The notes: generated by a model from the sequence alone, not told the origin. Shown: positions 788 to 63,026, counted from the first letter of the stretch. The stretch is DNA of 64,000 nucleotides from an uncultured Candidatus Saccharibacteria bacterium (GCA_964592365.1 CAZQDL010000002.1:86139-150138), one strand, 5' to 3'. A program made the numbers and translations.

Positions 788-812
788 AAACACCATATGG
801 TGTTTTTTTGTG
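788..812 (+). terminator. Rho-independent terminator after rpsI (perfect palindrome aacaccatatggtgtt + T-run)
   Basis: Sequence aaaaacaccatatggtgtttttttg read directly. Confidence 0.7.
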
Positions 813-827
813 GTATATTTACAGAGT

Positions 828-1487
828 ATGAAAAACATTATTATTATTTTCTTATTCGCAGCATTATCATTTACAACGTATCAACTTATCACTTTAGATA
901 ATACAATCCCATCAGGTATTGACCCGGTAGTCGAAGAGGTAGTTTCAACTGATGTTGAAAAAAAGAGGGTGCCAAATGAAAAAATATGTGTTGGAGAGGG
1001 TTGTGATGGTAGTATGAGCGGTGATAGTGAATCATATACCGTAGTATCAGTTCCACTTGTAACCAGTACTGGTAACATTGGTTGTGGTGAAGGAATAGTT
1101 TTCAGTCCACATGCGGTAAACAAGACAAGCGCAGTGCTTGATGCAACATACAAAAAGTTATTTAGTTTAGAACATGAACCTAATGTTGAATCAGATGATG
1201 TTCGAAATGTTGTTGCTTTGGAAAAAGATCTGTTCTACAAAGGAGTGTCTATTGATAATTCAAAAACAGCACGACTACTTCTTGAAGGAAAATCAACCTA
1301 CATATATAACTGTACGATTCCAACGTTTAGAGCTCAAATTGAGCAAGCTGCTCTTCAATTTAGTACGGTAGATTCTCTTGAAGTGTATATTAATAATAAA
1401 CTATGGGATTGGTGTGATTTTTCTCAAGCTGACCCAGAAGAAGATGGTTGTGATATTAATCCAAAACATTGGATTGCAACTAAGTAA
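828..1487 (+). CDS. hypothetical secreted/membrane-anchored protein (N-terminal hydrophobic segment)
   Basis: ORF track 810..1487; internal ATG at 828 (MKNIIIIFLFAALSF...) lies 8 nt downstream of TGGTATATT, so 828 preferred. No recognisable catalytic motif. Confidence 0.5.
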   Translation: MKNIIIIFLFAALSFTTYQLITLDNTIPSGIDPVVEEVVSTDVEKKRVPNEKICVGEGCDGSMSGDSESYTVVSVPLVTSTGNIGCGEGIVFSPHAVNKTSAVLDATYKKLFSLEHEPNVESDDVRNVVALEKDLFYKGVSIDNSKTARLLLEGKSTYIYNCTIPTFRAQIEQAALQFSTVDSLEVYINNKLWDWCDFSQADPEEDGCDINPKHWIATK

Positions 1488-1518
1488 AAAAAAGAAGATT
1501 TAATCTTCTTTTTTTGTA
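1488..1518. terminator. bidirectional hairpin terminator (aaaagaagatt/aatcttctttt)
   Basis: Inverted repeat flanked by A-run and T-run between convergent genes. Confidence 0.65.
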
Positions 1519-2066
1519 AACCTTCTTTCAAGAAGTGCTTCTGTTCCTGAATCAAGCTTATCCGTTACAATTACCATGAGTTCATCCTCAAGACCCAAGT
1601 CTTCTTTCATGTTGATCATCATGTGTTCAAGGGGAAAAGGGGATATCCAAATTGAACTTTTTAGTTGAACAAATTGTGCTTTTTTAAGTATGTATCGAAC
1701 AGCATCTCGTTGGGTTTTTTGGTCTTCTTTGATATCTAAAATGATAATACGCCAATATCCATCCCATGTAGTTGGAACAAGGTGGTTTCTAGCAGATAAT
1801 TTAATGTTCCTTAGTTTATGTCTACCCTCAGAAGAAAGACTTAAAAAAGAAGACTGTTCTGTTTCATGCTCATGTAGCATCTCACCTTCAATCATTTGCT
1901 TAATAGCCCTATTCACAAGATATTTAGGTTTTACCTTTCTTTCCTCATCTTGATCTTCGATAATGGCTTCCACGTATCGTGTCACTTCATCAGAACGAGC
2001 TGCTTTTTTTCCGGAAAGGAAATCAAGAATAAGTTCTTGAATGCTTTTTTTAGACGAATTTTTCAT
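1500..2066 (-). CDS. PaaX-like transcriptional regulator (winged-helix N-terminus + PaaX_C/Cas2-like C-terminal domain)
   Basis: C-terminal WDGYWRIIILDIKEDQKTQRDAVRYILKKAQFVQLKSSIWISP resembles the PaaX C-terminal W.G.W..V.Y......R..R......GFG.L...VWISP pattern; N-terminal part is HTH-like. Shorter than E. coli PaaX. Divergent from the grpE operon. Confidence 0.5.
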   Translation of the reverse strand: MKNSSKKSIQELILDFLSGKKAARSDEVTRYVEAIIEDQDEERKVKPKYLVNRAIKQMIEGEMLHEHETEQSSFLSLSSEGRHKLRNIKLSARNHLVPTTWDGYWRIIILDIKEDQKTQRDAVRYILKKAQFVQLKSSIWISPFPLEHMMINMKEDLGLEDELMVIVTDKLDSGTEALLERRFTKKED

Positions 2067-2149
2067 TAAACTTAAATATACATCAAATTCTTATTTTTTC
2101 AAGTATTTTTACATAAATTTCATTTAAGTGAAAAACTTGTCAAAATATT

Positions 2150-2162
2150 GTGGTTGTGTATA
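2150..2162 (+). promoter_or_regulatory. candidate sigma-70 promoter for grpE operon (TTGTCA-N16-TGtGTATACT)
   Basis: cttgtcaaaatattgtggttgtgtatact read upstream of grpE; no CIRCE/HrcA operator found in this intergenic region. Confidence 0.4.
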
Positions 2163-2185
2163 CTTACTTCGTAACTAAATAGTAT

Positions 2186-2743
2186 ATGAGTAAAAAAAAT
2201 AATCATGAAGAAGTAGAAATTGAATATGAAGATGAAATTGTTGAAGAACATGGAATGAAGGATAAACTAAAACAATTAAGAGAAGAGCTTAAGGAAGCAA
2301 AACTTCAATCCCAGGAATATTTAACAGGTTGGCAAAAAGAGAGAGCTTCATTTGCGAATTATAAGACTGAAGAAGAAAAAAAGAGACAAGAACGTATTGC
2401 TCTTTTGAAGACAAATCTTGTTTCTGATTTTTTTCCGGTACTTGATAGTTTTGATATGGCGTTTGGAAACAAAGATGCTTGGGAAAAAGTAGATCAAAAT
2501 TGGCGTATTGGAGTTGAATATATCTATACCCAATTTATGAATACACTTGAAGGATATGGAATTTCAGTTATCGATACAACCCATGTCCCTTTTGACCCTG
2601 TTATACATGATCCTGTTGAAAATGTCCCTGTTGATGAAAAGGATGATGGACACATCATTTCAGTTATTCAAAAGGGATATAGAACCAAGGATATGGTATT
2701 ACGACCAGCAAAGGTTCGTGTAGGAAAGTATGAAAACAAATAG
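2186..2743 (+). CDS. grpE: nucleotide exchange factor GrpE
   Basis: GWQKERASFANYK...FFPVLDSFDMAF...ISVIDTTHVPFDPVIHD matches the GrpE family; position directly upstream of dnaK. Confidence 0.9.
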   Translation: MSKKNNHEEVEIEYEDEIVEEHGMKDKLKQLREELKEAKLQSQEYLTGWQKERASFANYKTEEEKKRQERIALLKTNLVSDFFPVLDSFDMAFGNKDAWEKVDQNWRIGVEYIYTQFMNTLEGYGISVIDTTHVPFDPVIHDPVENVPVDEKDDGHIISVIQKGYRTKDMVLRPAKVRVGKYENK

Positions 2744-6594: not shown

Positions 6595-6659
6595 ATAATG
6601 TTTTGTTATGTTACTAATATATCTATTATATCACCTATCATGTGCTAGGATGTTACTGT

Positions 6660-7088
6660 ATGAGAGAAATCGTTATTATCTTCCCATTTAACACTCGTGA
6701 ACAAAAAATCTTAGTCATTGAAGAATATATACATCACTATAACAGATCCTTTTGGAAGTATGTAAGTGGTGGAGTAGACAAAGAAGAAAAAGATTTCATC
6801 ACCCATGCAAAAGAAGAACTTGCTGAAGAAGTTGGTATGAGTTCTGAGGGTTGGCACCATTTTCATCAATTAGAAAAAATTTTTGGTAATAGAGAAATTC
6901 ATTTTTTCATTGCTGAAGATCCAATTGAAATGGAAAACCCACAAGAGAATCCAGACGCTGATATCATCCTACAATCTGTTTGGGTAAACTATGAAGAATT
7001 TATGCATATGCTTGATACCAAACAATTAATGTGGGATCAAGCGAGTATGGCAGCATTGATGGTATTTAGAAAATACCAAATAAAATAA
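6660..7088 (+). CDS. NUDIX-family hydrolase (degenerate Nudix box)
   Basis: GGVDKEEKDFITHAKEELAEEVG approximates the Nudix box Gx5Ex7REUxEExGU; ATG at 6660 (MREIVIIF) sits 9 nt after TGcTAGGAT. Confidence 0.5.
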   Translation: MREIVIIFPFNTREQKILVIEEYIHHYNRSFWKYVSGGVDKEEKDFITHAKEELAEEVGMSSEGWHHFHQLEKIFGNREIHFFIAEDPIEMENPQENPDADIILQSVWVNYEEFMHMLDTKQLMWDQASMAALMVFRKYQIK

Positions 7089-7110: not shown

Positions 7111-7244
7111 TTACCTGTGTAGTGACGGCTGTTTCTTCGAGTCTTTGCTACTCCAAGCATATCCTTCTTTACTTCTAATCGTTTTACTGTTTTGTGAGAT
7201 GAAGTTGTCTTCATGTTTCCCACGCTATTTGTTCTTTTTCCCAT
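7107..7244 (-). CDS. unlisted small basic ORF (45 aa, MGKRTNSVGNMKTTSSHKTVKRLEVKKDMLGVAKTRRNSRHYTGK); possible tiny ribosomal-like protein
   Basis: Below the 60-aa ORF-track cutoff. On the minus strand TGTATACT lies 8 nt upstream of its ATG, the same leaderless promoter geometry as annotated genes. Lys/Arg-rich with faint similarity to the bL35 N-terminus (MKTxSSxKxRxK); unresolved. Confidence 0.3.
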   Translation of the reverse strand: MGKRTNSVGNMKTTSSHKTVKRLEVKKDMLGVAKTRRNSRHYTGK

Positions 7245-7337
7245 ATGTGATGAGTATACATGTTATTAATAATATGAATAGTGTTTGACAAATACGTATT
7301 TTGTACTATTTTACGTTAAACCTTAAATTATATAAAA

Positions 7338-7882: not shown

Positions 7883-9646
7883 TAATTGATTCTTTATCTG
7901 ATTGATAAAATCATCAATTGATATTCCTTTCTGTTGGCCATCTTTTGATTCAATAGTTAGTGTTTGTGTACTTACTTCTTCGTCTCCTATGATAATCCAG
8001 AAGGGAAGTTTTGAAGTCTTAGCTTTCCTTACTTTCTTCCCGAATCCCTCATGGTCATCGTTCCATAATTCAACTCTCATACCAACTGATGCAAGTGATG
8101 TATATACTTCAGTTGCATATGTTGAGTGAACGTCTGACTTGATTGGAATAATGGCTAGTTGAAGTGGTGCAAGCCAAACAGGAAAATAACCTTCGAAATG
8201 TTCAATTGCAAGTGACATGAATCTTTCAAGGGATCCTGCAATCGCTCTATGAATCATCACCGGAGTTTTCTTGTTTCCTTCTTGATCAGTATACGTTAAT
8301 TCAAATCGTGTCGGCTGAACAAAATCAAGCTGTGCAGTACCCAATTGCCATTCTCGTCCAATGGCATCTTTGAATTGAAAATCCAACTTTGGTCCGTAGA
8401 ATGCAGCTTCACCTTCTACTCGCATATAGTTTAGGTTATTTTCTTTGGCAATATCCTCAAGAATAGATTCTGCTTTATCCCATAGATGATTGTCGCCAAT
8501 ATACTTATCTAAGTTTTGTGGATCTCGAACAGAAAGTGAAACCCAATAGTTTCCTTCGTGGAACATATCCATCGTGGTGTAGAATTTTTTTATGATGGCT
8601 ACAATATTATTTACCTCTTCTTTTATTTGCTCTTCGGTACAGAAAATATGACCATCATCTTGTGAAATAGATCGAACACGTGAGAGTCCCATGAGTTCTC
8701 CTGCTTGTTCATCACGGTATACCATTGTCGTTTCAGCATACCGTAATGGGAGATCTCTGTATGAACGTGGTTCAGCATCATATATTTGTGTATGGTGCGG
8801 ACAATTCATAGGTTTCATAACAAATTCTACATTTGATTTTCCGGTAACATGGAATAGATCATCTTTATACTTATCCCAGTGACCTGATGTTTTATATAAA
8901 TCAGATTTAGTGATATGTGGAATACATACCTGTTGGTATCCGTATGGAGATTGTATTTCATCAATCTTTTTGATTACCAAGTTTCGAATCATCGTTCCTT
9001 TTGGAGTGAATAAAGGAAGACCGGAACCTACTTTTTCAGAGAAGGTGAATAGACCTAGTTCCTTCCCAATTTTTCTATGATCTCGTTTCTTCGCCTCTTC
9101 TTGCTTTGTTATGTATTCATCTAAATCTTCTTTTGTATCAAAAGCAAGACCATATATACGAGTAAGCATCGGATTGTTTTCATTACCTCTCCAGTATGCA
9201 CCTGCAACCCTGTCTAATTTCCAGGCATCCATATTGATACTTGAAAAATCGTCAACATGTCCTCCTCTACATAGGTCGGTAAAAGATCCAGAAGTATAGA
9301 AGGTAATTTCCTCACCCTTTTCTGCGATTTCTCGAATAAGTTCTTCTTTGTATGGATTTCCTGAAAAGAATGAAAGTGCTTCATCTTTTGTTACCACTTT
9401 GTGATCAAAATGCTTCCAGGTATTAGCAATCTTCTTCATTCTTTTTTGAATATCCTTTAAATCACCATCTGAAAGAGGGTGCTTAAGATCAATATCGTAA
9501 TAGAAACCATTATCGATTGCTGGACCTAGGCTTAAATATGCATCAGGATAGCTTTCAAGTACTGCTGCAGCAAGAAGGTGTGCAAGTGAATGTCTTTTCT
9601 TTTCTAATTCGTTCATATGCATATTGTAGCTGGCAATGGCATGCAT
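7880..9646 (-). CDS. thrS: threonyl-tRNA synthetase (short N-terminus, no TGS domain)
   Basis: HSLAHLLAAAV (editing-domain HxxxH), DHRKIGKELGLF, RDEQAGELMGLSRVRSISQDDGHIF (class II motif 2). ORF track start 9697; internal ATG at 9646 sits 7 nt after TGATATAAG; ATG at 9616 also possible. Confidence 0.9.
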   Translation of the reverse strand: MHAIASYNMHMNELEKKRHSLAHLLAAAVLESYPDAYLSLGPAIDNGFYYDIDLKHPLSDGDLKDIQKRMKKIANTWKHFDHKVVTKDEALSFFSGNPYKEELIREIAEKGEEITFYTSGSFTDLCRGGHVDDFSSINMDAWKLDRVAGAYWRGNENNPMLTRIYGLAFDTKEDLDEYITKQEEAKKRDHRKIGKELGLFTFSEKVGSGLPLFTPKGTMIRNLVIKKIDEIQSPYGYQQVCIPHITKSDLYKTSGHWDKYKDDLFHVTGKSNVEFVMKPMNCPHHTQIYDAEPRSYRDLPLRYAETTMVYRDEQAGELMGLSRVRSISQDDGHIFCTEEQIKEEVNNIVAIIKKFYTTMDMFHEGNYWVSLSVRDPQNLDKYIGDNHLWDKAESILEDIAKENNLNYMRVEGEAAFYGPKLDFQFKDAIGREWQLGTAQLDFVQPTRFELTYTDQEGNKKTPVMIHRAIAGSLERFMSLAIEHFEGYFPVWLAPLQLAIIPIKSDVHSTYATEVYTSLASVGMRVELWNDDHEGFGKKVRKAKTSKLPFWIIIGDEEVSTQTLTIESKDGQQKGISIDDFINQIKNQL

Positions 9647-9682
9647 GCAAGGGCTTATATCATAGTGTATGCTGTATGTATG

Positions 9683-14100: not shown

Positions 14101-14306
14101 ATATATGCATCAACACCGATTATTGGTTTGATGTCATACTTCTTGCATGTTTTGTAGAACTCGATAGTTCCGTACATTGATCCATAGTCGGTTAAAGCAA
14201 GGGCACTCATGTTGAATTCTTTTGCTTTTGTGACAAGTTCAGGGATTTTCGAAAGACCCTGTAAAAGTGAAAAATGGCTATGGGTATGTAGATGAATAAA
14301 TGACAT
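11136..14306 (-). CDS. dnaE: DNA polymerase III alpha subunit
   Basis: PHP domain (IHLHTHSHFSLLQGLSKI...ALALTDYGSMYG), palm/fingers motifs; ~1056 aa from ATG at 14306. ORF track start 14324. Confidence 0.95.
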   Translation of the reverse strand: MSFIHLHTHSHFSLLQGLSKIPELVTKAKEFNMSALALTDYGSMYGTIEFYKTCKKYDIKPIIGVDAYMAFRSMEQKDHGIDTKRYPFTLLAKDNQGYKNLMKLVTQSFIKGFYYRPRMDKELLREYKEGLICLSGSIYGEVGQAILTKNYDHAKELVLQYQEIFGKENYYIEIMFNDHIDGLKEINADLARISKETGAPLVATHNSHYIHPDDREAFDTLLGVSTTGNRVSSGFMRGEFHFASPEDIAERFKDYPEAIEETRRIADRCNVEIDIDSWYFPDFPIPEGYDYDRALREQTYRRIPDRNMEETKEVVERIEYELGIISSKGYSSYFLIMADLVEAALKMGIYTNTRGSAAGSLVSYLNFITKVNPLEMDLPFERFMNPGRKGIPDIDLDISDIHRDKVIDYIREKYGSKSVAQIGTFGTMAARGSVRDVARALDYPYELGDKIAKLIPMGSQGFPMTIARALEEEEDLRALYKSEADVKKIIDLAQKIEGCARHVSVHAAGVVISPTRVDDFSPVQFDPKGGKLITQYDMYTGDRDGVVNMPKFDLLGIRNLSILADAVRLVKQIQNIDIDLNTISLNDKKTYDLLGAGSTMGVFQMGSAGMTKYIIDLKPSNIYEINAMIALYRPGPMEFIPEYIQRKRNPSLVRYLDPRMKEILAPTYGILVYQEDVMQISVDLAGFTWGDADKLRKAIGKKIPELMAEQKEKLMQGCLDYGMKPQAVEELWDQIETFAAYGFNKSHAASYGRISYETAYMKANYPVEYMTAMLSAESGDTDKIAIIIHECASMNIEVLPPDINECFGSFTIIQNDEKNAIRFGFYTIKNFGEGIADAIIQERKRAGKFNSLEDLLNRVRHKNFNKKSLEALIMAGALDQFGERGSLLGNLEALLQYNKEVKSMHSDQASLFGNIGQSHISLKETEPLSKEDCLAMEKEILGVYVSGHPLDHMRDRFKKSSYHLGMISTGEIRNEQTVVVGGIIETVKVINTKKGDKMAFITLSDFTGSAEVVVFPKLYKEHAELLVEDAIIAIQGKMSDKDGKKSLLMQGVKPLQ

Positions 14307-14453
14307 ATATCTGTAGTATACCAAAAAGCAGGTGTGGTGATATACTTGAACATATGAAGTACGGAAAAATAGTTTTGTACATACTCACCCTTCTTCTTGG
14401 TACCTTCTACATATTTTCTTTCAGTGGAGAACCAGAAGGCCTCCAATCTCAAT

Positions 14454-15950: not shown

Positions 15951-15998
15951 TATAGGTTTTTTATTTTTATTTACCATTAATTTTGGTACAATCTCCAT

Positions 15999-17063
15999 AT
16001 GGCAAACCGACAACTGCACCGAACCGTACTATTACAAACACTTTTTGAATGGGATATACGTGGAAAGAATAGTCTTGAAATTCCTCTGTACCTTTCATAC
16101 ATATCAACTGCATTTAATGAAATTCATGATGCTGATCAAAAGGAACTTTCAATGTTCCTTCAAGAGCTCATGAAAAAACAGGTAGTTATTGATGACATTA
16201 TTGAAAAAGCAGCCCCATCATGGCCACTTGAAAAAATTTCCATTACTGATCGTAATGTACTTCGACTTGGATTATATGAACTGTTGTTTGGAGACAGGGA
16301 ACAGGTACCACCTAAGGTTGCAATAAATGAATCTATTGAATTAGCAAAACGCTTTGGAGGTCCAAAGAGTGGAAGATTCGTAAATGGAATTATCGGTGCT
16401 GTGTATAAAGAAATTGGTGAACCTGGAAAAGAAGATTTCGTAAATCAAAAAGTTCAATCTGTTTCATATGAAGATATGCCTATCGAACAAAAAGGTGCTG
16501 CTGTTGTGTACAGTATTGATGCACAGGGAGTTATTAGAATTGGAATGGTGCATGATGTTTTTGGGTATTGGACCCTATCAAAAGGGAGTATCGGAGAACA
16601 AGAAGCTGTAACTGATGGTGTTATTCGAAAGATAAAAGAAGAAACAAATTGGGATATAGAAATCATTGCTGATTTAGGTGATAACGAGTACATCGCATAT
16701 CCACCTGAAAAAGGACCAACACGAAAACATGTTCATTATTTTCTTGCGAAATCACCATACGTTAATCCTACCTTAGGATCACAATCAGGTGGATTAAATG
16801 ATGTTCGTTGGTTTGAACTATCAGAGATCACTGACCTAACCATCTATGATGATGTTTCTCAAATGCTTATCAAATCAATTGGACTCATTAGTGAAAAAGA
16901 AGGAAGAATAGAAAAATTAGGAGCAACAGCACCAAACCTTTCACAGCCTGATATTGATAGTATGAATAGAGATCAACTCGAAGTTCTTGCGCGATCAAGA
17001 GGAGTTGAGGAAACTGAAACTATGGATGATATAACCTTAAAAACTAAGTTACGAGAATCATAA
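15999..17063 (+). CDS. nusB: NusB-domain / Nudix-like-domain fusion protein with Rho_N/SAP-like C-terminal tail
   Basis: N-terminal ~135 aa: R..LLQTLFEWD...PPKVAINESIELAKRFGGPKSGRFVNGIIGAV = NusB fold motifs. Central region YWTLSKGSIGEQEAVTDGVIRKIKEETNW fits the Nudix box Gx5Ex7REUxEExGU (RK..EE present). C-terminal SMNRDQLEVLARSRGVEETETMDDITLKTKL resembles a Rho-N/SAP-like helix-extended-helix. TGgTACAAT 6 nt upstream of ATG. Confidence 0.7.
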   Translation: MANRQLHRTVLLQTLFEWDIRGKNSLEIPLYLSYISTAFNEIHDADQKELSMFLQELMKKQVVIDDIIEKAAPSWPLEKISITDRNVLRLGLYELLFGDREQVPPKVAINESIELAKRFGGPKSGRFVNGIIGAVYKEIGEPGKEDFVNQKVQSVSYEDMPIEQKGAAVVYSIDAQGVIRIGMVHDVFGYWTLSKGSIGEQEAVTDGVIRKIKEETNWDIEIIADLGDNEYIAYPPEKGPTRKHVHYFLAKSPYVNPTLGSQSGGLNDVRWFELSEITDLTIYDDVSQMLIKSIGLISEKEGRIEKLGATAPNLSQPDIDSMNRDQLEVLARSRGVEETETMDDITLKTKLRES

Positions 17064-17064
17064 T

Positions 17065-17751
17065 ATGGAAGCATATCTAACATTTGAATCTTCATTGGGA
17101 ATTTCTTTTGAAAACAAGCGTTTGCTACAACAAGCCTTTATCCATCGATCGTATATCAATGAAAATAAAGGTCTTGGTCTTGAGCATAATGAACGACTTG
17201 AGTTTTTAGGTGATGCCGTACTTGAACTTGTCGTAACTGATTTCTTGTACAAGCAGTATCCAGACATTGATGAGGGAATTCTAACAGCATATCGTTCATC
17301 ATTGGTACGCACAGAATCAATTTCAGAAGCAGCACGAACAATGGGAATGAATGAGTTACTTCTTCTTTCTAAGGGGGAATCAAAAGATCAGGGAAAAGCT
17401 CGTGATTATATTCTCGCTAACACTTTTGAATCTTTTGTTGGTGCTGTTTATTTAGATCAAGGGTATGACGTTGCACGTAAGGTAATTGCTGATGCATTAT
17501 TTGATAATATTCTACATGTTATTGATAATGGGACATGGAAAGATGCTAAGTCTCGCTTTCAAGAACTTGCCCAAGAGAAATATTCTGAAACTCCACGCTA
17601 CGAACTAATTTCTGCAGTTGGTCCAGACCATCAAAAGAAATTTATCATCGCCGTATATGTTGGAGAAAAAGAATGTGCACGAGGAACAGGAAAAAGTAAA
17701 CAAGAGGCACAGCAAGATGCAGCTGCACAAGCATTAGAAAAAGAAGCCTAG
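17065..17751 (+). CDS. rnc: ribonuclease III
   Basis: ERLEFLGDAVLELVVTDFLY RNase III signature plus C-terminal dsRBD; 2-nt gap from the previous gene. Confidence 0.93.
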   Translation: MEAYLTFESSLGISFENKRLLQQAFIHRSYINENKGLGLEHNERLEFLGDAVLELVVTDFLYKQYPDIDEGILTAYRSSLVRTESISEAARTMGMNELLLLSKGESKDQGKARDYILANTFESFVGAVYLDQGYDVARKVIADALFDNILHVIDNGTWKDAKSRFQELAQEKYSETPRYELISAVGPDHQKKFIIAVYVGEKECARGTGKSKQEAQQDAAAQALEKEA

Positions 17752-17809
17752 TTATTATGGCTTTTTTCTATATATCAACTCATGATTGTGATATACTAGA
17801 ATATTATAT

Positions 17810-20017
17810 ATGCATCTTAAACGATTAGAACTTAACGGTTTTAAGTCATTCGCTCATACTAGTGAATTTGTTTTTGATGTCCCTATCATTGCTATTGTAG
17901 GACCAAATGGATCTGGAAAATCAAATGTGGTTGAAGCTATTCGATTTGTGTTAGGAGAACAGTCAGTGAAATCAATGAGAGGGAAGACTGGATCGGATTT
18001 GATTTTCAAGGGATCAAAAGACATATCAAAAATGTCTCGTGCACGAGTGTCAATTACTTTTGATAACAAAAATCGAGTTTTCTATATCAATCAAGGTGAC
18101 ACCAAAGAAATTAGTGTAGACTTCGATGAGGTGACCATCGGAAGAGAAGTTTTTTCAGATGGAAGTAGTGTATATCGAATTAATGGTACTGAAGTGAGAA
18201 TGAAAGATATCCATGAACTTATCGCTTCTATTAACATTGGTTCTTCAGGGCACCATATTATCTCTCAAGGAGAAGCTGATCGATATTTAAATGCAAATGC
18301 AAGAGATCGTCGTACATTAATCGAAGAAGCACTTGGTTTAAAGGTGTATCAATATCGATTAAAAGAATCATTACGAAAGTTAAAGAAAGCAGAAGAAAAT
18401 CTAAGAGAAACTGAATTGTTAAGAAGAGAGATTGCCCCACACATTCGTTTCCTTAAAAAACAGGTTGAAAAAATACAACGAGCTAAAGAGCTACGAGTTA
18501 TTCTTGAAGAACAGTACCTTGATTATCTCAAACGAGAAGATTTTTATATAAAACATCTTCAAAAAACTTTGCAGCAACAAGAGGAAATTCTTCTTGAAGA
18601 AAAGAGAGAGGTTGATATTTATCTTGCTTCTCATCAGCAACAAACAGTAGAGCAGATTTCAGAGGAAAAAGATTTAATGGATGTTGAAAGAAAACTTTCA
18701 GGTATTAGACAGCAAAAACAAGAATACCTAAGAGAGATTGGCCGACTTGAAGGAATGATTTCAGTGTTGCAAAAACCAAAGCAAACTTCGGTGAATAAGC
18801 AGTTTTCGTACCAAAGAATTGTAACATTCAAAGAAGAGATTCAGGGTATTATAAATACTCTTAACCGTACTGATATCAGTTCACTTACTCATTTCCTCTC
18901 TATTCTTTCTGAAAAATTAGATCATCTCATCGGAGAGCATACAGAAGAAACTATCCATGAAGATACCTCGCTTCAGGAATTCCTAGCAAAGGAGAGTCTT
19001 TTGAGAGAATCACTTTCTGATATTTCTCTTCAAGAAGATGGCTTGATAAAAGAAATTGTAGGAATTCAAGAAGTAATTTCTAAAAAAAGAATCAAGCAAC
19101 AAGAAGAACAGAGAGAATTCTTCATCATGCAATCAAGGAAAAAGGAACTTGATGGAAAACAAGAACTTCTCCATTCGAAAAAACAATCACTTCTTCATCG
19201 TATTGCTGATCGTGATTTAGAATATCAAGAAGCTCTTGTTTTATTAGGATTAAATCAACTTGAAATACAAGAAACTGATTTCAATGAGGTAACTACAGAA
19301 TCTCAAACACAGTTAAGAAGAGAACTTGAACGTAACAAGATTCGTCTTGAAGACATGGGTGGAGGAACTGGAATAGAAACAGTTAAAGAATATGAGGAAA
19401 CAGTACAGCGGGATGAATTTTTGTCGAAAGAAATTGATGATGTACAAACCACTATTACTTCCTTAAATCAGATCATTAATGAATTAAAGGGAACCTTAAA
19501 TATTGAATTCAATGCTGGAGTAGAAAAAATTAATATTCAATTCAATAACTTCTTTACCCTTATGTTTGGTGGAGGAAAGGCTGTGCTAAAAGAGGTTATT
19601 ATGAAAAAGAAAAAGTCACCAGAAGAAGAATTTGATACTTCTGAAGACGAAAACCAAGAAGAGTATGGTATTGATATTGCTGTAGAGCTACCTCGAAAGA
19701 AAGTATCTGATCTTGATATGCTCTCAGGAGGAGAACGATCATTAACATCAATTGCTTTGCTTTTTGCACTGTCTCAAGTAAATCCACCACCTTTTTTGGT
19801 ACTTGATGAAACTGATGCTGCCTTAGATGAAGCAAATAGTCAAAAGTATGGTGATATGATTGAATCACTATCAGCATATTCACAACTTATTTTAGTTACG
19901 CATAACAGAGAAACCATGAGTAGAGCACAGACACTATTTGGAGTTACGCTTGGTCGGGATGATGCATCAACAATGCTTTCGCTTCGATTAGAGGATGCAG
20001 AAAAGTATGCGAAATAA
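17810..20017 (+). CDS. smc: SMC-family chromosome-segregation ATPase, unusually short (735 aa), no recognisable hinge
   Basis: N-terminus MHLKRLELNGFKSFAHTSEFVF...IVGPNGSGKSNVVEAIRFVLGEQS is a textbook SMC head; C-terminus LSGGERSLTSIALLFAL...LVLDETDAALD carries the signature motif and Walker B. Middle ~400 aa are coiled-coil-like with no glycine-rich hinge. rnc-smc synteny as in B. subtilis. Confidence 0.75.
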   Translation: MHLKRLELNGFKSFAHTSEFVFDVPIIAIVGPNGSGKSNVVEAIRFVLGEQSVKSMRGKTGSDLIFKGSKDISKMSRARVSITFDNKNRVFYINQGDTKEISVDFDEVTIGREVFSDGSSVYRINGTEVRMKDIHELIASINIGSSGHHIISQGEADRYLNANARDRRTLIEEALGLKVYQYRLKESLRKLKKAEENLRETELLRREIAPHIRFLKKQVEKIQRAKELRVILEEQYLDYLKREDFYIKHLQKTLQQQEEILLEEKREVDIYLASHQQQTVEQISEEKDLMDVERKLSGIRQQKQEYLREIGRLEGMISVLQKPKQTSVNKQFSYQRIVTFKEEIQGIINTLNRTDISSLTHFLSILSEKLDHLIGEHTEETIHEDTSLQEFLAKESLLRESLSDISLQEDGLIKEIVGIQEVISKKRIKQQEEQREFFIMQSRKKELDGKQELLHSKKQSLLHRIADRDLEYQEALVLLGLNQLEIQETDFNEVTTESQTQLRRELERNKIRLEDMGGGTGIETVKEYEETVQRDEFLSKEIDDVQTTITSLNQIINELKGTLNIEFNAGVEKINIQFNNFFTLMFGGGKAVLKEVIMKKKKSPEEEFDTSEDENQEEYGIDIAVELPRKKVSDLDMLSGGERSLTSIALLFALSQVNPPPFLVLDETDAALDEANSQKYGDMIESLSAYSQLILVTHNRETMSRAQTLFGVTLGRDDASTMLSLRLEDAEKYAK

Positions 20018-20021: not shown

Positions 20022-21170
20022 CTAGTTTCCTAGGTTTTTATCATACACCACATGTTCTTTAAGGTAATCAAGAATGTTACGAGTATCCTGCTGGCGTGTA
20101 TTTGATTGAAGAATCACTACCCCAATATTTTTTATTTCACCATTTGAAAGAGCAATTTCGTAATATCCAATACTTGTTTGTTGAGCAGCATTAGTAAATC
20201 CAGTTTTACCTCCTCTAAATTCAGGAAATCCTGATGCTTTGTTAATATTTCTCCAAGTATATTCGTTGATACTTTTTTCAGATAGCTGAGAAATTCCGAC
20301 TATCTGTGGATAGGTGTTACGAGTAATCTGCATGAAAGAAAAGAGGTCTCTTGCTGTTGAAACATTTTGGATAGAGAGTCCTGTAGGATCTCCAAACCCT
20401 GTATCTAATAGCTCGTATGATTCAACTATCTCATTCATACTTGCGATAAAATTAGCCCTATCTCTCTGTTGAGCAATAACTTCACCTGCATCATTTGATG
20501 ATACTAGCAAAAGAGGGTAAATGAGTTCCCGAATGGTAAGGGTATCTCCGGGTATAAATCTACCTCTGTTTCCTAATACCTCAAGTTCTTTGGGATCAAT
20601 AGTAGCAATTTCGTTTGGTGGAAATTTTTCTGCTGCAGTAAACGCTGTAAAGTATTTGGTAATTGATGCGATAGGGTATATTTCCTTTGCTTTTCGTTCA
20701 AAAATTATCTCTCCTGTATCAAGATCACCTACCAAGAAACTTCGAGCATTAACTGATCCAAGTCTTTCAAGAGACTGTAAATAATATTTTCCCTGAACCT
20801 CATCTTCAATATCAAGTGCTGCAAGAAGTTCTTTCTTTTGTCGTTCATATTCTTGAAAAAGTCGGAGATCTTCTTTTGCTTGTTCTAGGGTTATAGGGCT
20901 AAGATTTTGTAGATTAAATACTCGTTGAGCAGGGTAGATACGCTGATCTTTAGGAAGAGGAGCTGGATCATAGTCAAGAACAATTTCTTCTTCGTTACCT
21001 ACTAGATTTGCTGCAAGTTGGTCTTGTATTGGGTCAGATACTTTTTCTTTGGTATTTGTTATTCCGTTATCAAAACCAAAAATAACTGAAAACACAAAAA
21101 AGGCTCCAATGAGGAGCAATATTGCCATAAATAATTCACCTATTATTTCTGAACCACTTTGTTTAGCCAT
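20022..21170 (-). CDS. D-alanyl-D-alanine carboxypeptidase (S11/PBP5-like), N-terminal membrane anchor
   Basis: SxxK (ASITK), SxN (SSND) and KTG (KTGFT) motifs in canonical order. TATACT 9 nt upstream of ATG on minus strand. Confidence 0.8.
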   Translation of the reverse strand: MAKQSGSEIIGELFMAILLLIGAFFVFSVIFGFDNGITNTKEKVSDPIQDQLAANLVGNEEEIVLDYDPAPLPKDQRIYPAQRVFNLQNLSPITLEQAKEDLRLFQEYERQKKELLAALDIEDEVQGKYYLQSLERLGSVNARSFLVGDLDTGEIIFERKAKEIYPIASITKYFTAFTAAEKFPPNEIATIDPKELEVLGNRGRFIPGDTLTIRELIYPLLLVSSNDAGEVIAQQRDRANFIASMNEIVESYELLDTGFGDPTGLSIQNVSTARDLFSFMQITRNTYPQIVGISQLSEKSINEYTWRNINKASGFPEFRGGKTGFTNAAQQTSIGYYEIALSNGEIKNIGVVILQSNTRQQDTRNILDYLKEHVVYDKNLGN

Positions 21171-21198
21171 ATTATTATTAGTATACGATATACAATGG

Positions 21199-41824: not shown

Positions 41825-41832
41825 TCAGCTAT

Positions 41833-41997
41833 ATGAAATCAAAAGGATTCACCCTCATTGAACTATTGGTAGTAGTTGCCATTATTGGAATACTTGCAAC
41901 TGTGGTATTAGCTAGTCTAAGTTCTGGTCGAGCATCAGCACGAGATGCACGACGTTTAGCTGATATTAAAACCATTCAGACAGCACTTGAGTTATAT
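41833..41997 (+). repeat. ~165-bp near-identical direct repeat (5' end of pilin-3), copy A
   Basis: The first ~165 nt of genes 41833 and 43126 differ at one position (cagaca vs caaaca) by direct comparison. Confidence 0.8.
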
Positions 41998-43042: not shown

Positions 43043-43125
43043 GGTAGATATAGTATATCATTTCTTTTCTTGTTTCTTGATCAGCACTTTAAATAGACAG
43101 CCATGTATAGTAATATACTAAGTAT

Positions 43126-43290
43126 ATGAAATCAAAAGGATTCACCCTCATTGAACTATTGGTAGTAGTTGCCATTATTGGAATACTTGCAACTGTGGTA
43201 TTAGCTAGTCTAAGTTCTGGTCGAGCATCAGCACGAGATGCACGACGTTTAGCTGATATTAAAACCATTCAAACAGCACTTGAGTTATAT
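43126..43290 (+). repeat. ~165-bp near-identical direct repeat (5' end of pilin-4), copy B
   Basis: See copy A; the two copies flank recR. Confidence 0.8.
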
Positions 43291-43686: not shown

Positions 43687-45047
43687 TCAGCATCAAGACT
43701 GTGAGGATCAATCTCTCCATGATTCTTATCCAAATCAAGAAATGTTGTTCGTGCAGTATCGAAGTAAAGTTGAGCATATCCTGTTGCTCCATTTCGATGT
43801 TTTTCAATGAGTACTTCTGTAATTTCAGAACGACCTGTATTTTCCTCGTTACGATCACGATGTAAGAACATAACAACATCAGCATCTTGTTCAATCGAAC
43901 CTGAATCTCTAAGGTCAGAAAGTCGAGGTCTACCCCCACGTTGTTCAACGGCACGTGAAAGCTGAGAAAGAGCAATTACTGGTACCTCAAGTTCTCGAGC
44001 CAGAGATTTAAGTGATCGAGAAATTTCAGTAACTTGATTCACCATAGAATCATAGTTCTTGCTGGTGGTCATAAGTTGCATGTAATCAACAAGGATAAGG
44101 CCAAGTCCGTGTTCAGCCTTAAGTCTTCTTGCTGTTGATCTCATTTGAAGAATTGAGTTTCCTGGCTTGTCATCAATATAGATAGGAGCTTTTGAAAGAG
44201 TCTCCATTCCTTGAGAAATCCTGGTGAAATCATCCTCAGTTAATCCTTTTCCTGTACGCATTCGCCATGCATCAACCTGTGCTTGTGCTGAAAGCATTCT
44301 GTCGGTAAGTTGGTCAGCACTCATCTCAAGAGAGAAGAATCCAACAGGAATATTGTGTTGTACAGCAGCCTTCCTTGCTATATCAAGTGCTAGTGCTGTT
44401 TTTCCTGTAGAAGGCCGAGCTGCAAGAATAATCAAGTCAGATTTTTGGAATCCTGAAAGAATATTATCCAAACCAGCATATCCGGTTGGAACTCCTCGTA
44501 ACTCATTTCCTACCGTTAATCTTTCAAGTTTTTCCCATACCAAAGGAAGAATCTCTTTAATACTTGTAAATTTTTGAGCATTTGTTGGGTTTGAAGTAAT
44601 TTCAAAAATTGTTTTCTCAGCTTGATCAAGAATTGATTCTACATCTTCTTTTTCTTCAAAACCAAGATTACTTACGAAGTCACCAGCAATGATAAGTTTT
44701 CGTAATAATGATTTTGTAGCAACGTTTTTTGCATAATATTCAATGTTTGTAGAGGAGGGAACAATATTTGCAATATCGTTAAGGTAGCTCATACCACCTG
44801 CCTGTTCAAGGAGATTTAGACGTCTGAGGGTATCTGAAACAGATACTATATCAATAGGGTCACCAGTACGTGATAGTTCCATCATGGCTCTGAAGATAAC
44901 CTTGTGTTTCTGCACATAGAAATCATCTTCAGCTATCGTGTCGATAATATCATGAAGGGCAACAGGACGAAGCATAATTGATCCTAAGAGAGCTTTTTCA
45001 GCATCAATGTTCTGAGGAGGTGTTCGTAAGTTCTTGTTCGTTTGCAT
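43680..45047 (-). CDS. dnaB: replicative DNA helicase DnaB
   Basis: N-terminal PPQNIDAEKALLGSIML, Walker A ARPSTGKTALALDIARKAA, H4/RecA-fold motifs; 455 aa, no intein. Confidence 0.93.
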   Translation of the reverse strand: MQTNKNLRTPPQNIDAEKALLGSIMLRPVALHDIIDTIAEDDFYVQKHKVIFRAMMELSRTGDPIDIVSVSDTLRRLNLLEQAGGMSYLNDIANIVPSSTNIEYYAKNVATKSLLRKLIIAGDFVSNLGFEEKEDVESILDQAEKTIFEITSNPTNAQKFTSIKEILPLVWEKLERLTVGNELRGVPTGYAGLDNILSGFQKSDLIILAARPSTGKTALALDIARKAAVQHNIPVGFFSLEMSADQLTDRMLSAQAQVDAWRMRTGKGLTEDDFTRISQGMETLSKAPIYIDDKPGNSILQMRSTARRLKAEHGLGLILVDYMQLMTTSKNYDSMVNQVTEISRSLKSLARELEVPVIALSQLSRAVEQRGGRPRLSDLRDSGSIEQDADVVMFLHRDRNEENTGRSEITEVLIEKHRNGATGYAQLYFDTARTTFLDLDKNHGEIDPHSLDAEF

Positions 45048-45145
45048 GTCTCAAATCTTATCACGATACTCCATGTTATGCTTTTGTTAGGTGTACAACT
45101 TATGTGTATAGTCATGTGGAATACGGTATGTGATATACTAATTAC

Positions 45146-49902: not shown

Positions 49903-49994
49903 AGTATATGACGTTTGATACCTTATATTATTACACTTATCCAAAAGCTTGAACAGGGTGGTAAAGGTATATTTTTTTGATACGATGTATCTAT

Positions 49995-50243
49995 ATGGGA
50001 ATTAAAAACTTTTTAACAAGAAAACTTATTGAATCAAAGTTAAAACATTTACCAAAAGAACAGCAAGATATGATTATTGCATTGGTAACTGAAAACCCTG
50101 AATTCTTTAAGAAGATTCAAGATCAAATTGAAACAAAGAAGAAGCAAGGTCAAAATGAACAGTTGGCGATGATGCAGGTAATGAGAGAAAACCAAGCTGA
50201 AATTCAAAAACTTATGATACAACACGCTTCTAACAAGAAGTAA
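49995..50243 (+). CDS. small hypothetical helical protein
   Basis: ~82 aa, charged/helical, no motif recognised. Confidence 0.3.
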   Translation: MGIKNFLTRKLIESKLKHLPKEQQDMIIALVTENPEFFKKIQDQIETKKKQGQNEQLAMMQVMRENQAEIQKLMIQHASNKK

Positions 50244-52095: not shown

Positions 52096-52137
52096 AGCAT
52101 TATTCCAAAAGAATATAATTATGATACAGTATCTGAC

Positions 52138-53250
52138 ATGAGCTTATCTATTGGAATTGTAGGTCTTCCTAATGTGGGGAAGTCAACACTTTTTAACGCA
52201 TTAACTAAAAAATCAGTACCAGCTGAAAACTATCCATTTTGTACTATTGATCCTTCAGTGGGCATTGTTGCTGTACCTGATGCACGGCTATGGAAACTAT
52301 CTGAGTTTTCACATTCACAAAAAACCATCCCAGCTGCTATTGAGTTCGTTGATATTGCTGGTCTTGTTGAAGGTGCTTCAACAGGTGAAGGATTGGGTAA
52401 CAAGTTTTTGGCAAATATCCGTGAAGTTGATGCTATTTTACACATGGTTCGTATTTTTGATATTGTTGATAGTACTTCAACAGAACAAACTCATGTATAT
52501 GGTTCAATTGATCCTCTTCGTGATATTAAAGTTATCAATATGGAACTTATTCTTGCTGATATGGAAACCGTATCAAATCGAATTGAAAAACTAATTCGTG
52601 ATGTTAAGCGTGGAGATAAAGATGCAATACAAGAAGATGCTCTTGCAAGAAAAATCCTTTCCGCTCTAGAAGATGAGAAAATGGCAAATCGTATGATTCT
52701 AACTGAGGAAGAAAAGGGAATTGCAAAGGGGTGGCACCTTCTTACCATGAAACCAGTTCTTTATGGATTTAATAAAAAAACAGGCGGAAGAAACTTAGAT
52801 GTTACTCAGCCTGATGAATTTAAAAAAGTTGTAGAAGAGGTTCTTGAAACAGGTTCTTCATATGTGGTACTTGATGCAAAAACAGAACATGAGCTTTCAG
52901 CTTTTGAGGGTGAAGAGAAACTTATGATGAAAGAAGAGATTGAACACACTGACGACGGTGTTGACGAACTTATCGTTCAATCATACAAGCTTTTGGGTCT
53001 TATGACCTATTTCACAACAGGGGAAACTGAAAGTAGAGCATGGACAGTGAAGGTAGGTTCTACTGCACCTCAGGCTGGAAGGGCAATCCATTCTGATTTT
53101 CAGGATAGGTTTATCCGAGCTGATGTTGTTAGCTACACAGACCTTATCGATAGTGGTTCATATGCAGAAGCTCGATCACGAGGGTTATTACGACTTGAAG
53201 GAAAAGAGTACATAGTGAAAGATGGTGATATCATTGAATTCAAAATATAG
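52138..53250 (+). CDS. ychF: ribosome-binding ATPase YchF (Obg-family)
   Basis: [20 protein letters not shown]1 motif, [11 protein letters not shown]3, C-terminal TGS-like domain; 370 aa. Confidence 0.93.
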
Positions 53251-59467: not shown

Positions 59468-59548
59468 ATATTAGGTATATATCTGAGTTTCTTTAAAACA
59501 ATATAAAGCTTGCACAAGGTTTCATACAAGGCTACACTTACGAGTATG

Positions 59549-60820: not shown

Positions 60821-60852
60821 TTTGCAGGCTTTTGATATGATAGATAACAGAT

Positions 60853-61692
60853 ATGTCACGAAAGAATTTTAACACTCCTGAATACACTAAAAGAAAAAGA
60901 ATGCGAAACATTCTTTCTGTTAGTATTTTCATAGTGCTTTTTTCTGCTTTGATCTATCTTGTAAATATTCCATATTTCAAAGTTAAAAGTATTGCTGTTG
61001 TTGGACAGCAAACTATTACTACCCGACATCTTGAAGAAAGTATTAATGAATATCTAGATGAATATTGGTTTTGGGTAATACCAAAAAGAAATATACTCTT
61101 CGTTATCCCTCGTAAATTAGATGAACGGTTAAAAAAAGAATTCTCTAAAATATATAAAGTAGATATTGATGTTGATGTTGATACATTACGAGTTGGTATA
61201 GAAGAGAGGACACCGCATTCTTTGTGGTGTACGAATAAAGAATATACCTCTAAGTTTAACCAAGATTGTATGTTTTCTGATCAGCGAGGTCTCCTGTATG
61301 CTCGTGCTCCATATTTTTCTGATAATGTGTTTCTAAAGATATTTGTTCCAAAACGAGTAAAACAAGGTGAACGATATCTTAAGCCAAAAGCTTTTGAATC
61401 ACTGTTTTCTTTTTTAGATGAACTTGAAAAAGAAAAAAATATTTCATTACAATCAGTGGTTTTCCTTGAACACAGTGATCTTGAGCTATATATCAATCGA
61501 ATTGGAGATACTGTATTTCAAGAGAAACCAAGTATACGAATGAATATGGATACTTCATATGTACAGTTAAAGAGAAACATCAATGTTGTTTTGGAGCAAC
61601 CTGATTTTATTGAAAAGTTTAGTGTGAATCCTCAAGGTTTAGTTTCCATTGATTTACGATTTGATGATAGGGCATTTTACCAATACCGATAA
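60853..61692 (+). CDS. FtsQ/DivIB-like cell-division protein (TM + POTRA-like)
   Basis: Cytoplasmic basic N-terminus, TM (ILSVSIFIVLFSALIYLV), then YFKVKSIAVVGQQTITTRHLEESINEY resembling the POTRA start of FtsQ. Confidence 0.45.
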   Translation: MSRKNFNTPEYTKRKRMRNILSVSIFIVLFSALIYLVNIPYFKVKSIAVVGQQTITTRHLEESINEYLDEYWFWVIPKRNILFVIPRKLDERLKKEFSKIYKVDIDVDVDTLRVGIEERTPHSLWCTNKEYTSKFNQDCMFSDQRGLLYARAPYFSDNVFLKIFVPKRVKQGERYLKPKAFESLFSFLDELEKEKNISLQSVVFLEHSDLELYINRIGDTVFQEKPSIRMNMDTSYVQLKRNINVVLEQPDFIEKFSVNPQGLVSIDLRFDDRAFYQYR

Positions 61693-61693
61693 T

Positions 61694-62737
61694 ATGAATA
61701 CTAAAGAAGATAACAAAATAGTAATGGGATTTTGGGATACCTTACCAAAAGATGGATCTATCATTATGGCCCCTATGGCTGATGTTACTGATTCAGCTTT
61801 TAGGAAAATAATTGCAAAATACTCACGATGCGGACAAGAGGGTGGTGGTCCCGATGCTTTTTATACTGAATTCGTTTCAGCAGATGGATTAGCCTCACAG
61901 CAAGGAAGACCAAAGTTATTACATAACTTTGTATTCAGTGAACAAGAGCGACCTATCATGGCTCAAATTTTTTCTAATAATCCAAAAAATATGGAACAAG
62001 CAGCGGCACTATGTGTTGATCTTGGTTTTGACGGTATTGATATAAACATGGGGTGTCCTGAGAAAAATATATGTAAACAAGGAGCAGGTTCTGCCCTTAT
62101 TCAAACCAAGGAGCTTGCAAAAGAGGTCATTAGAGCAACGATAAAGGGTGCAAATGGAAAGATACCAGTTTCAGTAAAAACACGCGTTGGATGGACCCAG
62201 AATGAGATTGAAACATGGATACCAGCAATTTTGGAATGTAATGTTGCTGCTATTATCCTTCACGGAAGGACCCGTAAAGTCATGAGCAAAATACCTGCAA
62301 ATTGGGATTGGATACAACGTGCTTCTGAAATAGTTAAAGCCTCTGGAAAACCAACAAAAATAATTGGAAATGGAGATATTGTATCTTTGGAGCAGGGACG
62401 AGAATATATTAAACGATATCATGTTGATGGGGTATTGGTTGCTCGTGGAATCTTTGGAAATCCTTGGTTCTTTGATGCAGAAAAAACTCAAGTGACTGTT
62501 GAAGAGAAATTGCAAGTAATGCTTGAGCATACAGAAATTTTCTTAGAAGAGCTCAAGGACCACAAGAATTTTGCAGTAATGAAAAAACACTACAAAGCCT
62601 ACGTAAATGGTTTTGATGGTGCTAAAGAACTTCGTGTGAAGTTAATGGAATCAGATACTTATGAAGAAATAGTAGAACATGTACATGCTTTCTTGGAAGA
62701 ACATGAAGAAGTAAAAAAGGTAATGATTCCTTGTTAA
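61694..62737 (+). CDS. dus: tRNA-dihydrouridine synthase
   Basis: IMAPMADVTDSAFRKI, FDGIDINMGCPEKNICKQGAGSALI (catalytic Cys), PVSVKTRVGW. ORF track start 61649; ATG at 61694 abuts the previous stop. Confidence 0.88.
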   Translation: MNTKEDNKIVMGFWDTLPKDGSIIMAPMADVTDSAFRKIIAKYSRCGQEGGGPDAFYTEFVSADGLASQQGRPKLLHNFVFSEQERPIMAQIFSNNPKNMEQAAALCVDLGFDGIDINMGCPEKNICKQGAGSALIQTKELAKEVIRATIKGANGKIPVSVKTRVGWTQNEIETWIPAILECNVAAIILHGRTRKVMSKIPANWDWIQRASEIVKASGKPTKIIGNGDIVSLEQGREYIKRYHVDGVLVARGIFGNPWFFDAEKTQVTVEEKLQVMLEHTEIFLEELKDHKNFAVMKKHYKAYVNGFDGAKELRVKLMESDTYEEIVEHVHAFLEEHEEVKKVMIPC

Positions 62738-62768
62738 AGAAAGCTCTATTAGAATAGAGCTTTTCCTT
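62738..62768. terminator. terminator (gaaagctcta ttagaa tagagctttc)
   Basis: Read directly. Confidence 0.65.
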
Positions 62769-62973
62769 TTTGATTCTCATTAACAAGAAATGTATACACT
62801 TCATGTAAGGTTCGATGTATGGTTAGTTTAACCCTCTTTTTTCCTTGAGTGTTGATTATCGTGGAAGAAGAATGTGATTTTATTGATATTTTCGTACCGC
62901 TTTCAAGTACATACTCTTCGGGGTGTACAAGTGGTGATATATCAATAGTAACTAATGTAGTAATGGTAATCAT
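62749..62973 (-). CDS. small hypothetical protein (74 aa), doubtful
   Basis: Only ORF in a ~290-nt gap; its stop lies inside the dus terminator hairpin; no motif. Confidence 0.2.
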   Translation of the reverse strand: MITITTLVTIDISPLVHPEEYVLESGTKISIKSHSSSTIINTQGKKRVKLTIHRTLHEVYTFLVNENQKGKALF

Positions 62974-63026
62974 AGTATTTAATTTGTATTCCTTACAAGT
63001 ATACCGTAGTTTGATATACTAGGTCT

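Follow-up and report, generated by a model that had tools for sequence, protein, structure and literature searches.

How does translation begin on genes that carry no Shine-Dalgarno (SD) sequence? This question is raised by a 64,000-nucleotide stretch of DNA deposited as an uncultured Candidatus Saccharibacteria bacterium (GCA_964592365.1, CAZQDL010000002.1:86139-150138; hereafter the window), in which a box resembling TGnTAtAaT recurs a few nucleotides ahead of many start codons. An earlier reading of this stretch without database searches (the sequence-only reading) had taken the box to be an extended -10 element and concluded that most messenger RNAs (mRNAs) begin at or within a few nucleotides of the AUG. 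Our analysis, in which "genome-wide" covers these 64 kb and some 18 kb of flanking sequence, indicated that the motif is a promoter and not a ribosome-binding site. We put the probability at roughly 80% that it is the housekeeping extended -10 promoter and gives leaderless mRNAs translated without an SD, the transcription starts being predicted from the distance between box and start codon.

The window has a GC content of 35% and holds the housekeeping genes grpE-dnaK-dnaJ, thrS, dnaE, a nusB-NUDIX fusion, rnc, smc, rnr, rpsP, cysS, secA, smpB, ftsH, recG, rplU, recR, dnaB, ychF, rnj, topA, serS and dnaX, together with four pilin-like genes, a transfer-messenger RNA (tmRNA) gene and two tRNA genes. 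Its closest SecA relative is a Candidatus Campbellbacteria metagenome-assembled genome (76% identity), and the organism is a low-GC lineage of Patescibacteria (Candidate Phyla Radiation, CPR) near Ca. Campbellbacteria, with a small genome. The same organism was found in many public metagenome assemblies, and samples in which it is abundant include JGI 3300008005, 3300025842 and 3300008094 and ENA ERZ27293356, ERZ27293367 and ERZ27293371. For comparison, we used nine CPR relatives (loci L001-L009, SecA identity 57-76%); most of these records are labelled Patescibacteria/CPR, and L003, labelled Crocinitomicaceae, is probably a mis-binned contig. Loci from other phyla (L010-L080) served as controls, and the 19 non-CPR loci with GC<0.45 formed the low-GC control subset.

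To describe the geometry, the spacer was defined as the number of nucleotides between the hexamer and the A of the ATG, and a promoter-blind rule was applied that takes the first in-frame ATG of 64 long open reading frames (ORFs). Under this rule, TANNNT was found at a spacer of 5-10 in 29 of the 64 starts (45%) vs. 353 of 2468 other ATGs (14%, p=5e-9), and the extended -10 (TGnTAnnnT; TGNTANNNT) in 15 (23%) vs. 32 of 2468 (1.3%, p=8e-14). Within the upstream regions, TGNTANNNT showed a sharp peak, with 15 occurrences at spacers 6-9 vs. 7 over the remaining 37 offsets. The strict motif TGNTA[TC]A[AC]T has 22 sites on the two strands of the window, 15 of which are followed by an ATG 5-9 nt downstream; 13 of these 15 ATGs begin ORFs that are 80 or more codons long, while the same sites at control distances of 15-34 give about 0.8. 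The loose form followed by an ATG at 5-9 nt marked 41 ATGs, compared with 21.5 +/- 5.0 in 100 Markov-1 simulations. Among curated starts, 34 of 61 genes showed the proximal -10 geometry, and 31 of 32 promoter-proximal starts were ATG. The spacers of strong -10 elements within 60 nt were bimodal, with 28 genes at 6-12 nt, none at 13-20 and nine at 21-34. In the low-GC non-CPR loci (n=19), TANNNT reached 12% (background 13%) and the extended -10 reached 2%, compared with 50% and 21% in the nine CPR relatives; strict motifs stood ahead of a long ORF at this distance in 1 of 68 cases in the low-GC controls tallied vs. 23 of 55 in the relatives. Because the low-GC non-CPR loci stay at background, the geometry is not an artefact of AT-richness.

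Every example listed by the sequence-only reading was present in the sequence, and its suggestion that start codons be scored against background yielded enrichment over simulations, control ATGs and other offsets. Most of its spacer counts stood as well, while those at 6660 (8 nt, not 9), ftsH 36585 (7, not 8), 45146 (6, not 9) and dnaX (ATG 63027; 6, not 7) required revision. The thrS example does have a proximal box, but its hexamer, TATAAG, is without the usual final T. The small ORF noted at 7244 indeed has TGTATACT, 8 nt and an ATG, and lies on the minus strand (7244-7107, 45 aa). This ORF (7107-7244) encodes a very basic peptide, MGKRTNSVGNMKTTSSHKTVKRLEVKKDMLGVAKTRRNSRHYTGK, carries its own TGTATACT promoter with a hairpin downstream of the ORF, and had no NCBIfam match.

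The geometry is conserved. When the 40 nt upstream of secA were aligned for ten CPR genomes, the only invariant positions were T-17, the TG of the extension, T-12, A-11, T-7 and the ATG. The rpsP orthologues keep the same positions and, in addition, a TTGC -35 and CATATG. The orthologues of rnr, smpB, ftsH and recG behave likewise, the position being held as the flanks diverge, and the GTG of recG is conserved. For metagenome loci at lower SecA identity, which include no very close relatives and give noisy per-locus values, pooled values were used. Among the matches listed, loci with SecA 51-59% identical (27 loci, 294 genes) showed SD-like motifs at 14% of starts (background 9%), TANNNT at 28% (background 10%) and the extended -10 at 9.5% (background 0.5%); in those at or below 50% identity, again among the matches listed, SD rose to 33% and the extended -10 fell to 2.5%. 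These shifts with SecA identity show the trait to be a property of the lineage that fades with distance.

We then asked what remains of the SD system. SD-like motifs (GGAG, GAGG or AGGA at -18 to -4) preceded 4 of 62 window genes (6%) and 3% of genes in the relatives, at a background of 8-9% (9% for the window), in line with the general absence that the sequence-only reading had noted; the identical analysis gave 51% in the low-GC non-CPR loci. Statistically, the SD is not used in this lineage. That reading had also proposed an inspection of the 16S rRNA 3' end. No rRNA was present in the window, in 10-kb flanks from other assemblies or in L001-L008, and a pattern scan of 168 sequences found a 16S 3' end in L009 alone, so that the inspection was made in this relative. 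The first 234 positions of L009 hold the 3' end of such a gene. Its alignment to the Rfam 16S model RF00177 scores 200.6 bits and runs to the last position of the model, and its tail reads GGAAUAAUUCAAUU where the consensus reads GGAUCACCUCCUUU. CCUCC is absent, and thus the anti-SD core is gone in L009, a relative with 61% SecA identity in which 0 of 18 starts are SD-like and 8 of 18 have a proximal -10. The L009 tail agrees with the anti-SD loss reported in Parcubacteria, in only 48% of which the motif was detected, with its significance left unknown (PMC9297842). The 16S end of L009 is followed by protein-coding genes; because there is no 23S within 20 kb, the rRNA genes are not linked.

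In the leaderless reading, a sigma-70-type extended -10 with the consensus T-TGr-TAtA(a/c)T would act without a recognisable -35. The A of the start codon would be the 7th-10th base after the hexamer, where RNA polymerase normally initiates, so that for about half of the genes and the majority of transcription units the mRNA would begin at or roughly 0-3 nt from the AUG. The 5'-terminal AUG would then be recognised directly, with no SD/anti-SD pairing, and genes lacking their own promoter would be served by reinitiation after a nearby or overlapping stop or by short A-rich, G-poor leaders. All of the computational tests agree with this reading, which is supported by the match between the -10-to-ATG spacing and the published distance of 7-8 bp from the -10 to the transcription start site: RNA polymerase initiates 7-8 bp past the -10, guided by a Y-R-Y start element, of which "tATg" is one (PMC12641261). 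With spacers of 6-7 nt, the A of "tATg" is the expected start base; with 8-10 nt, the start would fall at this A or 1-3 nt before it. Similarly, a Pribnow box 6-8 nt from the gene start is the GeneMarkS-2 signature of predicted leaderless genes in Mycobacterium tuberculosis, the leaderless transcriptome of which has been mapped by differential RNA sequencing (PMC6028130).

Several observations weigh against this reading. Spacers of 8-10 nt, which make up about 40% of the modules, may give leaders of 1-3 nt rather than a strict 5'-AUG, and about 45% of the transcription units fall outside the leaderless geometry. The claim that most mRNAs begin at or near the AUG therefore applies to roughly 54-56% of transcription units and not to the rest. 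A pyrimidine (mostly T) occupies -1 in about 86-91% of starts, in promoter-proximal and other genes alike; T or C at -1 was thus rejected as a sign of transcription starting at the A of the ATG, and since both classes share the bias it is unusable as evidence specific to transcription start sites. In addition, the loss of the anti-SD was seen just in L009 and not in the 16S of the window organism itself.

The alternative that survives best accepts the promoters but holds that leaders are mostly 3-10 nt and that initiation follows another cue, for example, ribosomal protein S1 on an unstructured A/U-rich context. Spacers of 8-12 nt at 828, 14306, 23170, 29960, 41466, 60853 and smc speak for it, as do the invariant CAT before the ATG of rpsP, a possible start element that would produce a 2-nt leader, and the SD-less A-rich leaders that are evidently translated in genes without a proximal promoter. 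However, the modal spacers of 6-7 nt set the A of the ATG exactly at the preferred start position, and by convention a transcript with a leader of up to 5 nt is still classed as leaderless. We regard this alternative as unlikely, with a small but real chance of being correct.

A very improbable alternative is that the motif is a non-SD ribosome-binding site, recognised by an altered 16S tail or by a ribosomal protein, on mRNAs starting further upstream. Such a site would suit the location of the motif, in the same -6 to -15 region as an SD, and the alteration of the 16S tail in the lineage. Four lines of evidence, together with the conserved secA columns, support a promoter instead. First, the motif logo (T-17, TG at -15/-14 and TAnnnT, with no informative -35 column) is that of a sigma-70 extended -10 and matches at the exact sigma-contact positions; G occupies -14 in 22 of 34 sequences and T occupies -15 in 24 of 34. 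Classical -35/-10 matches were not enriched in the window (55 vs. 77 expected), and the two-hexamer promoter type was rejected for this reason. Second, the motif is restricted to first genes. In the window, a proximal -10 heads 25 of 46 first genes vs. 0 of 9 genes whose start lies no more than 20 nt from a stop codon on the same strand; among the relatives, it is found at 48 of 87 first vs. 4 of 19 internal genes, and the extended -10 at 22 of 87 vs. 0 of 19. The internal genes of the rpsM-rpsK-rpsD-rpoA-rplQ-rplM-rpsI operon (L081, just upstream of the window) likewise have neither motif nor SD. Third, the motif also precedes the non-coding tmRNA gene, whose 5' end is not translated: here TATGAT comes after a terminator and is separated from the mature 5' end by 9 nt. 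Fourth, the motif begins right behind the T-run of a terminator at 828, 23913, 29960 and 41833, and just 52-60 bp separate the divergent start codons at 23109/23170, 27416/27472, 36527/36585 and 62973/63027, layouts that leave room for no second promoter. Terminators are themselves enriched in the window (24 vs. 8.8 expected). As for pairing between the motif and an alternative anti-SD, neither TATAAT nor TATACT finds a complement in the L009 tail, AAUAAUUCAAUU, and this candidate was rejected.

Chance overlap of TA-rich hexamers with ATG, or a bias in the choice of starts, would be invited by a genome of 35% GC in which TANNNT occurs 2931 times in the window, but it is refuted by the promoter-blind rule (still p=8e-14), the offsets of 11-40 nt as an internal control, the background level of low-GC non-CPR loci and the conserved motif position among orthologues, and its probability is negligible.

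The tmRNA (31955-32331, +) encodes the tag peptide AENSIASPYFKGSLAYA, and because its -10 lies just 9 nt from the mature 5' end, perhaps little or no 5' processing is needed.

Genes without a proximal promoter fall into two classes. The operon-internal genes, 7-9 in number, start 1-13 nt past the upstream stop or 14 nt before it, as in TAAtATG at 17065 and TAAcATG at 35649, which is consistent with termination-reinitiation. In about a dozen first genes (e.g., grpE, 33702, 53433 and 62973), a good -10 is located 21-34 nt upstream, and their leaders of roughly 15-30 nt are A-rich and G-poor. With the two classes pooled, positions -13 to -2 contain about 50% A and 5-14% G, and this generic tract is all that the pooled genes have in common. 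Within a lower-GC block (0.32) of hypothetical genes at 30400-35300, the leaders at 32491, 33702 and 34582 are A-rich, roughly 20-35 nt long, and have an AAAACTA-like motif in common.

The sequence-only reading had also preferred promoter-anchored internal ATGs to several annotated starts, and three independent sources agreed with this preference. Orthologue N-termini align to residue 1 of the promoter-anchored proteins (secA 27472, rnr 23109, recG GTG 40936, smpB and ftsH). In the shortened proteins, the first residue of the Pfam domains falls between 2 and 10 (pilin N_methyl at 2, SMC_N at 2 and PHP at 5). Independent gene calls made on further assemblies of this organism concur for 828, dnaJ 4996 and thrS 9646, and in one assembly for serS 59546; the starts of serS and topA differ between assemblies of the same organism.

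The layout of the genes, with single-gene units, near-random orientation, modules of about 45 nt consisting of terminator, promoter and ATG, and divergent starts 52-60 bp apart, fits the leaderless reading. Of the 60 window genes, 46 head their own transcription unit, and adjacent pairs are co-directional in 52% of cases in the window and 53% in the relatives, vs. 77% in non-CPR low-GC controls. The modules and the divergent promoter pairs illustrate the extent to which regulatory DNA has been compacted. The thrS gene, which starts at 9646 on the minus strand, diverges from a diacylglycerol-kinase gene that starts at 9641 on the plus strand. The 5' ends of the two share 6 nt, and each promoter thus lies inside the opposite gene.

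Among known systems, the architecture is the bacterial leaderless type defined as GeneMarkS-2 group C, here without an SD fallback. In group C (Actinobacteria and Deinococcus-Thermus, e.g., M. tuberculosis), as here, TANNNT lies 6-8 nt from the start of first genes and is missing before internal genes, with a predicted share of leaderless transcripts of 25-50% (PMC6028130). However, the remaining genes of group C use the SD, which is at background here, and group C genomes under genetic code 11 are almost all high in GC, compared with 35% here. In addition, the TG extension dominates the promoters of our lineage and gene orientation is near random. In Mycoplasma pneumoniae the -10 is strong and the -35 weak, and many transcripts start at or near the AUG. 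Low-GC Mycoplasma have been placed in group C with 30-60% predicted leaderless, and they share with our organism a reduced AT-rich genome and -10-dominated promoters (10.1101/2022.07.25.500264); they belong to another phylum and use code 4 rather than code 11, and their models still include SD-type ribosome-binding motifs. The Bacteroidetes-type group B (PMC6028130) is likewise SD-independent, with an A-rich, G-poor tract similar to that before our leadered and internal starts, but its single motif stands ahead of every gene, internal genes among them, and is no promoter, whereas the dominant motif here is a promoter at first genes only.

The anti-SD-lacking Parcubacteria (Tsurumaki et al. 2022, RNA 28:1041; PMC9297842) belong to the same broad lineage as our organism, in whose genes SD motifs are not used and one of whose relatives, L009, has a CCUCC-less tail. 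They overlap the group lacking uL1, and bS21 is often absent (PMC9297842). That study reports the rRNA feature and calls its function unclear; it describes neither promoter-proximal starts nor leaderless initiation. Our literature search found no description of a leaderless architecture in CPR, Patescibacteria or Parcubacteria, subscription journals being outside its coverage and an earlier description possible. The architecture offers a plausible answer to how translation starts in these bacteria, which was left open (PMC9297842). It also extends leaderless-dominant expression, which under the standard code was considered chiefly a feature of high-GC genomes, to a CPR lineage that is ultra-small and low in GC. 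We lean, by a narrow balance, towards a broader proposal: a whole branch of Parcubacteria, comprising Campbellbacteria together with relatives whose SecA is as little as about 55% identical, would have abandoned SD/anti-SD pairing for a default of TGnTAtAaT-N6-9-AUG, with termination-reinitiation and A-rich leaders as the only back-ups. If true, this would account for the loss of the anti-SD described in 2022 and also for a gene order that is fragmented and random in orientation. In practice, standard gene callers applied to these genomes settle on a TTG, a GTG or an upstream ATG, and a start model anchored on the -10 would fix N-termini across thousands of metagenome-assembled CPR genomes.

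Table 1. Promoter boxes, spacers and start codons in the window, followed by starts without a proximal box (positions from the first nucleotide of the window).
Feature	Position	Strand	Remark
tggTATATT + 8 nt + ATG, hypothetical gene	811..830	+	terminator hairpin directly upstream; JGI gene call uses same ATG
TGTATATT + 8 nt + ATG, PaaX_M-like gene	2064..2083	-	
tgcTAGGAT + 8 nt + ATG, NUDIX gene	6643..6662	+	
TGTATACT + 8 nt + ATG, unannotated 45-aa basic ORF (7244-7107)	7242..7261	-	
tgaTATAAG + 7 nt + ATG, thrS	9644..9662	-	last base of hexamer non-canonical
tggTATACT + 8 nt + ATG, dnaE	14304..14323	-	
tggTACAAT + 6 nt + ATG, nusB-NUDIX fusion	15984..16001	+	
tcgTATACT + 9 nt + ATG, D-Ala-D-Ala carboxypeptidase	21168..21188	-	
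tggTATACT + 7 nt + ATG, rnr	23107..23125	-	divergent from rpsP, 60 bp between ATGs
tgaTAGGAT + 9 nt + ATG, rpsP	23152..23172	+	TTGC -35 and CATATG conserved
tgaTATAAT + 7 nt + ATG, pilin	23897..23915	+	terminator directly before
tggTATACT + 6 nt + ATG, SIMPL	25131..25148	-	
gggTAGAAT + 6 nt + ATG, response regulator	25369..25386	+	
tgaTACAAT + 6 nt + ATG, cysS	27414..27431	-	divergent from secA, 55 bp between ATGs
tgaTACACT + 7 nt + ATG, secA	27456..27474	+	geometry invariant across 10 CPR genomes
tgaTATAAT + 9 nt + ATG, pilin	29942..29962	+	terminator directly before
TATGAT, 9 nt ahead of mature tmRNA 5' end (31955)	31940..31957	+	terminator before; non-coding control for promoter function
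taaTATAAT + 6 nt + ATG, hypothetical gene	35291..35308	+	
aggTACACT + 6 nt + ATG, smpB	36525..36542	-	divergent from ftsH, 57 bp between ATGs
aggTATACT + 7 nt + ATG, ftsH	36569..36587	+	
tgaTATACT + 8 nt + GTG, recG	40934..40953	-	GTG and spacing conserved in L001
ttgTATACT + 6 nt + ATG, hypothetical gene	41379..41396	-	
TGTATAAT + 10 nt + ATG, rplU	41447..41468	+	
tgaTATAAT + 8 nt + ATG, pilin	41816..41835	+	terminator directly before
tgaTATACT + 9 nt + ATG, recR	43040..43060	-	
taaTATACT + 6 nt + ATG, pilin	43111..43128	+	
tgaTAAGAT + 7 nt + ATG, dnaB	45045..45063	-	
tgaTATACT + 6 nt + ATG, hypothetical 598 aa	45131..45148	+	
tgaTACGAT + 8 nt + ATG, small ORF heading VanW gene	49978..49997	+	
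tgaTACAGT + 7 nt + ATG, ychF	52122..52140	+	
ggcTACACT + 7 nt + ATG, serS	59530..59548	+	preferred to TTG 59510
tgaTATACT + 6 nt + ATG, dnaX	63012..63029	+	
tgaTATACT + 12 nt + ATG, smc	17789..17812	+	short leader about 5 nt; spacers 14-19 nt in relatives
tgaTATGAT + 11 nt + ATG, hypothetical 279 aa	60833..60855	+	near-leaderless
TAAtATG stop-start junction, nusB-NUDIX to rnc	17061..17067	+	operon-internal start, no SD, no -10
Operon-internal junctions like that of rnc	386, 2730, 3112, 4996, 35649, 50248		gaps -14 to +13 nt
GTGTATACT 21 nt ahead of ATG, grpE	2150..2188	+	minority class, SD-less leader roughly 15-30 nt
Other starts in the leadered class of grpE	11061 (-), 15108, 32491, 33702, 34582, 53433, 55520 (-), 62973 (-)		

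Several further features of the window were observed. NusB and a NUDIX hydrolase domain are fused in one protein of 354 aa (15999-17063, +). Ribosomal protein S16 (23170-23739, +) has 189 aa, of which the Pfam S16 domain covers residues 8-65 only, and thus carries a long C-terminal extension. Type-IV-pilin-like genes are located at 41833-42354 and 43126-43650 (+), and also at 23913 and 29960; the first ~75 nt of coding sequence are identical in the genes at 41833 and 43126. AUA codons are read in most bacteria by a lysidine-modified CAU tRNA; the window contains a tRNA-Ile with the anticodon UAU (38627-38701, -), an uncommon bacterial solution for AUA reading.

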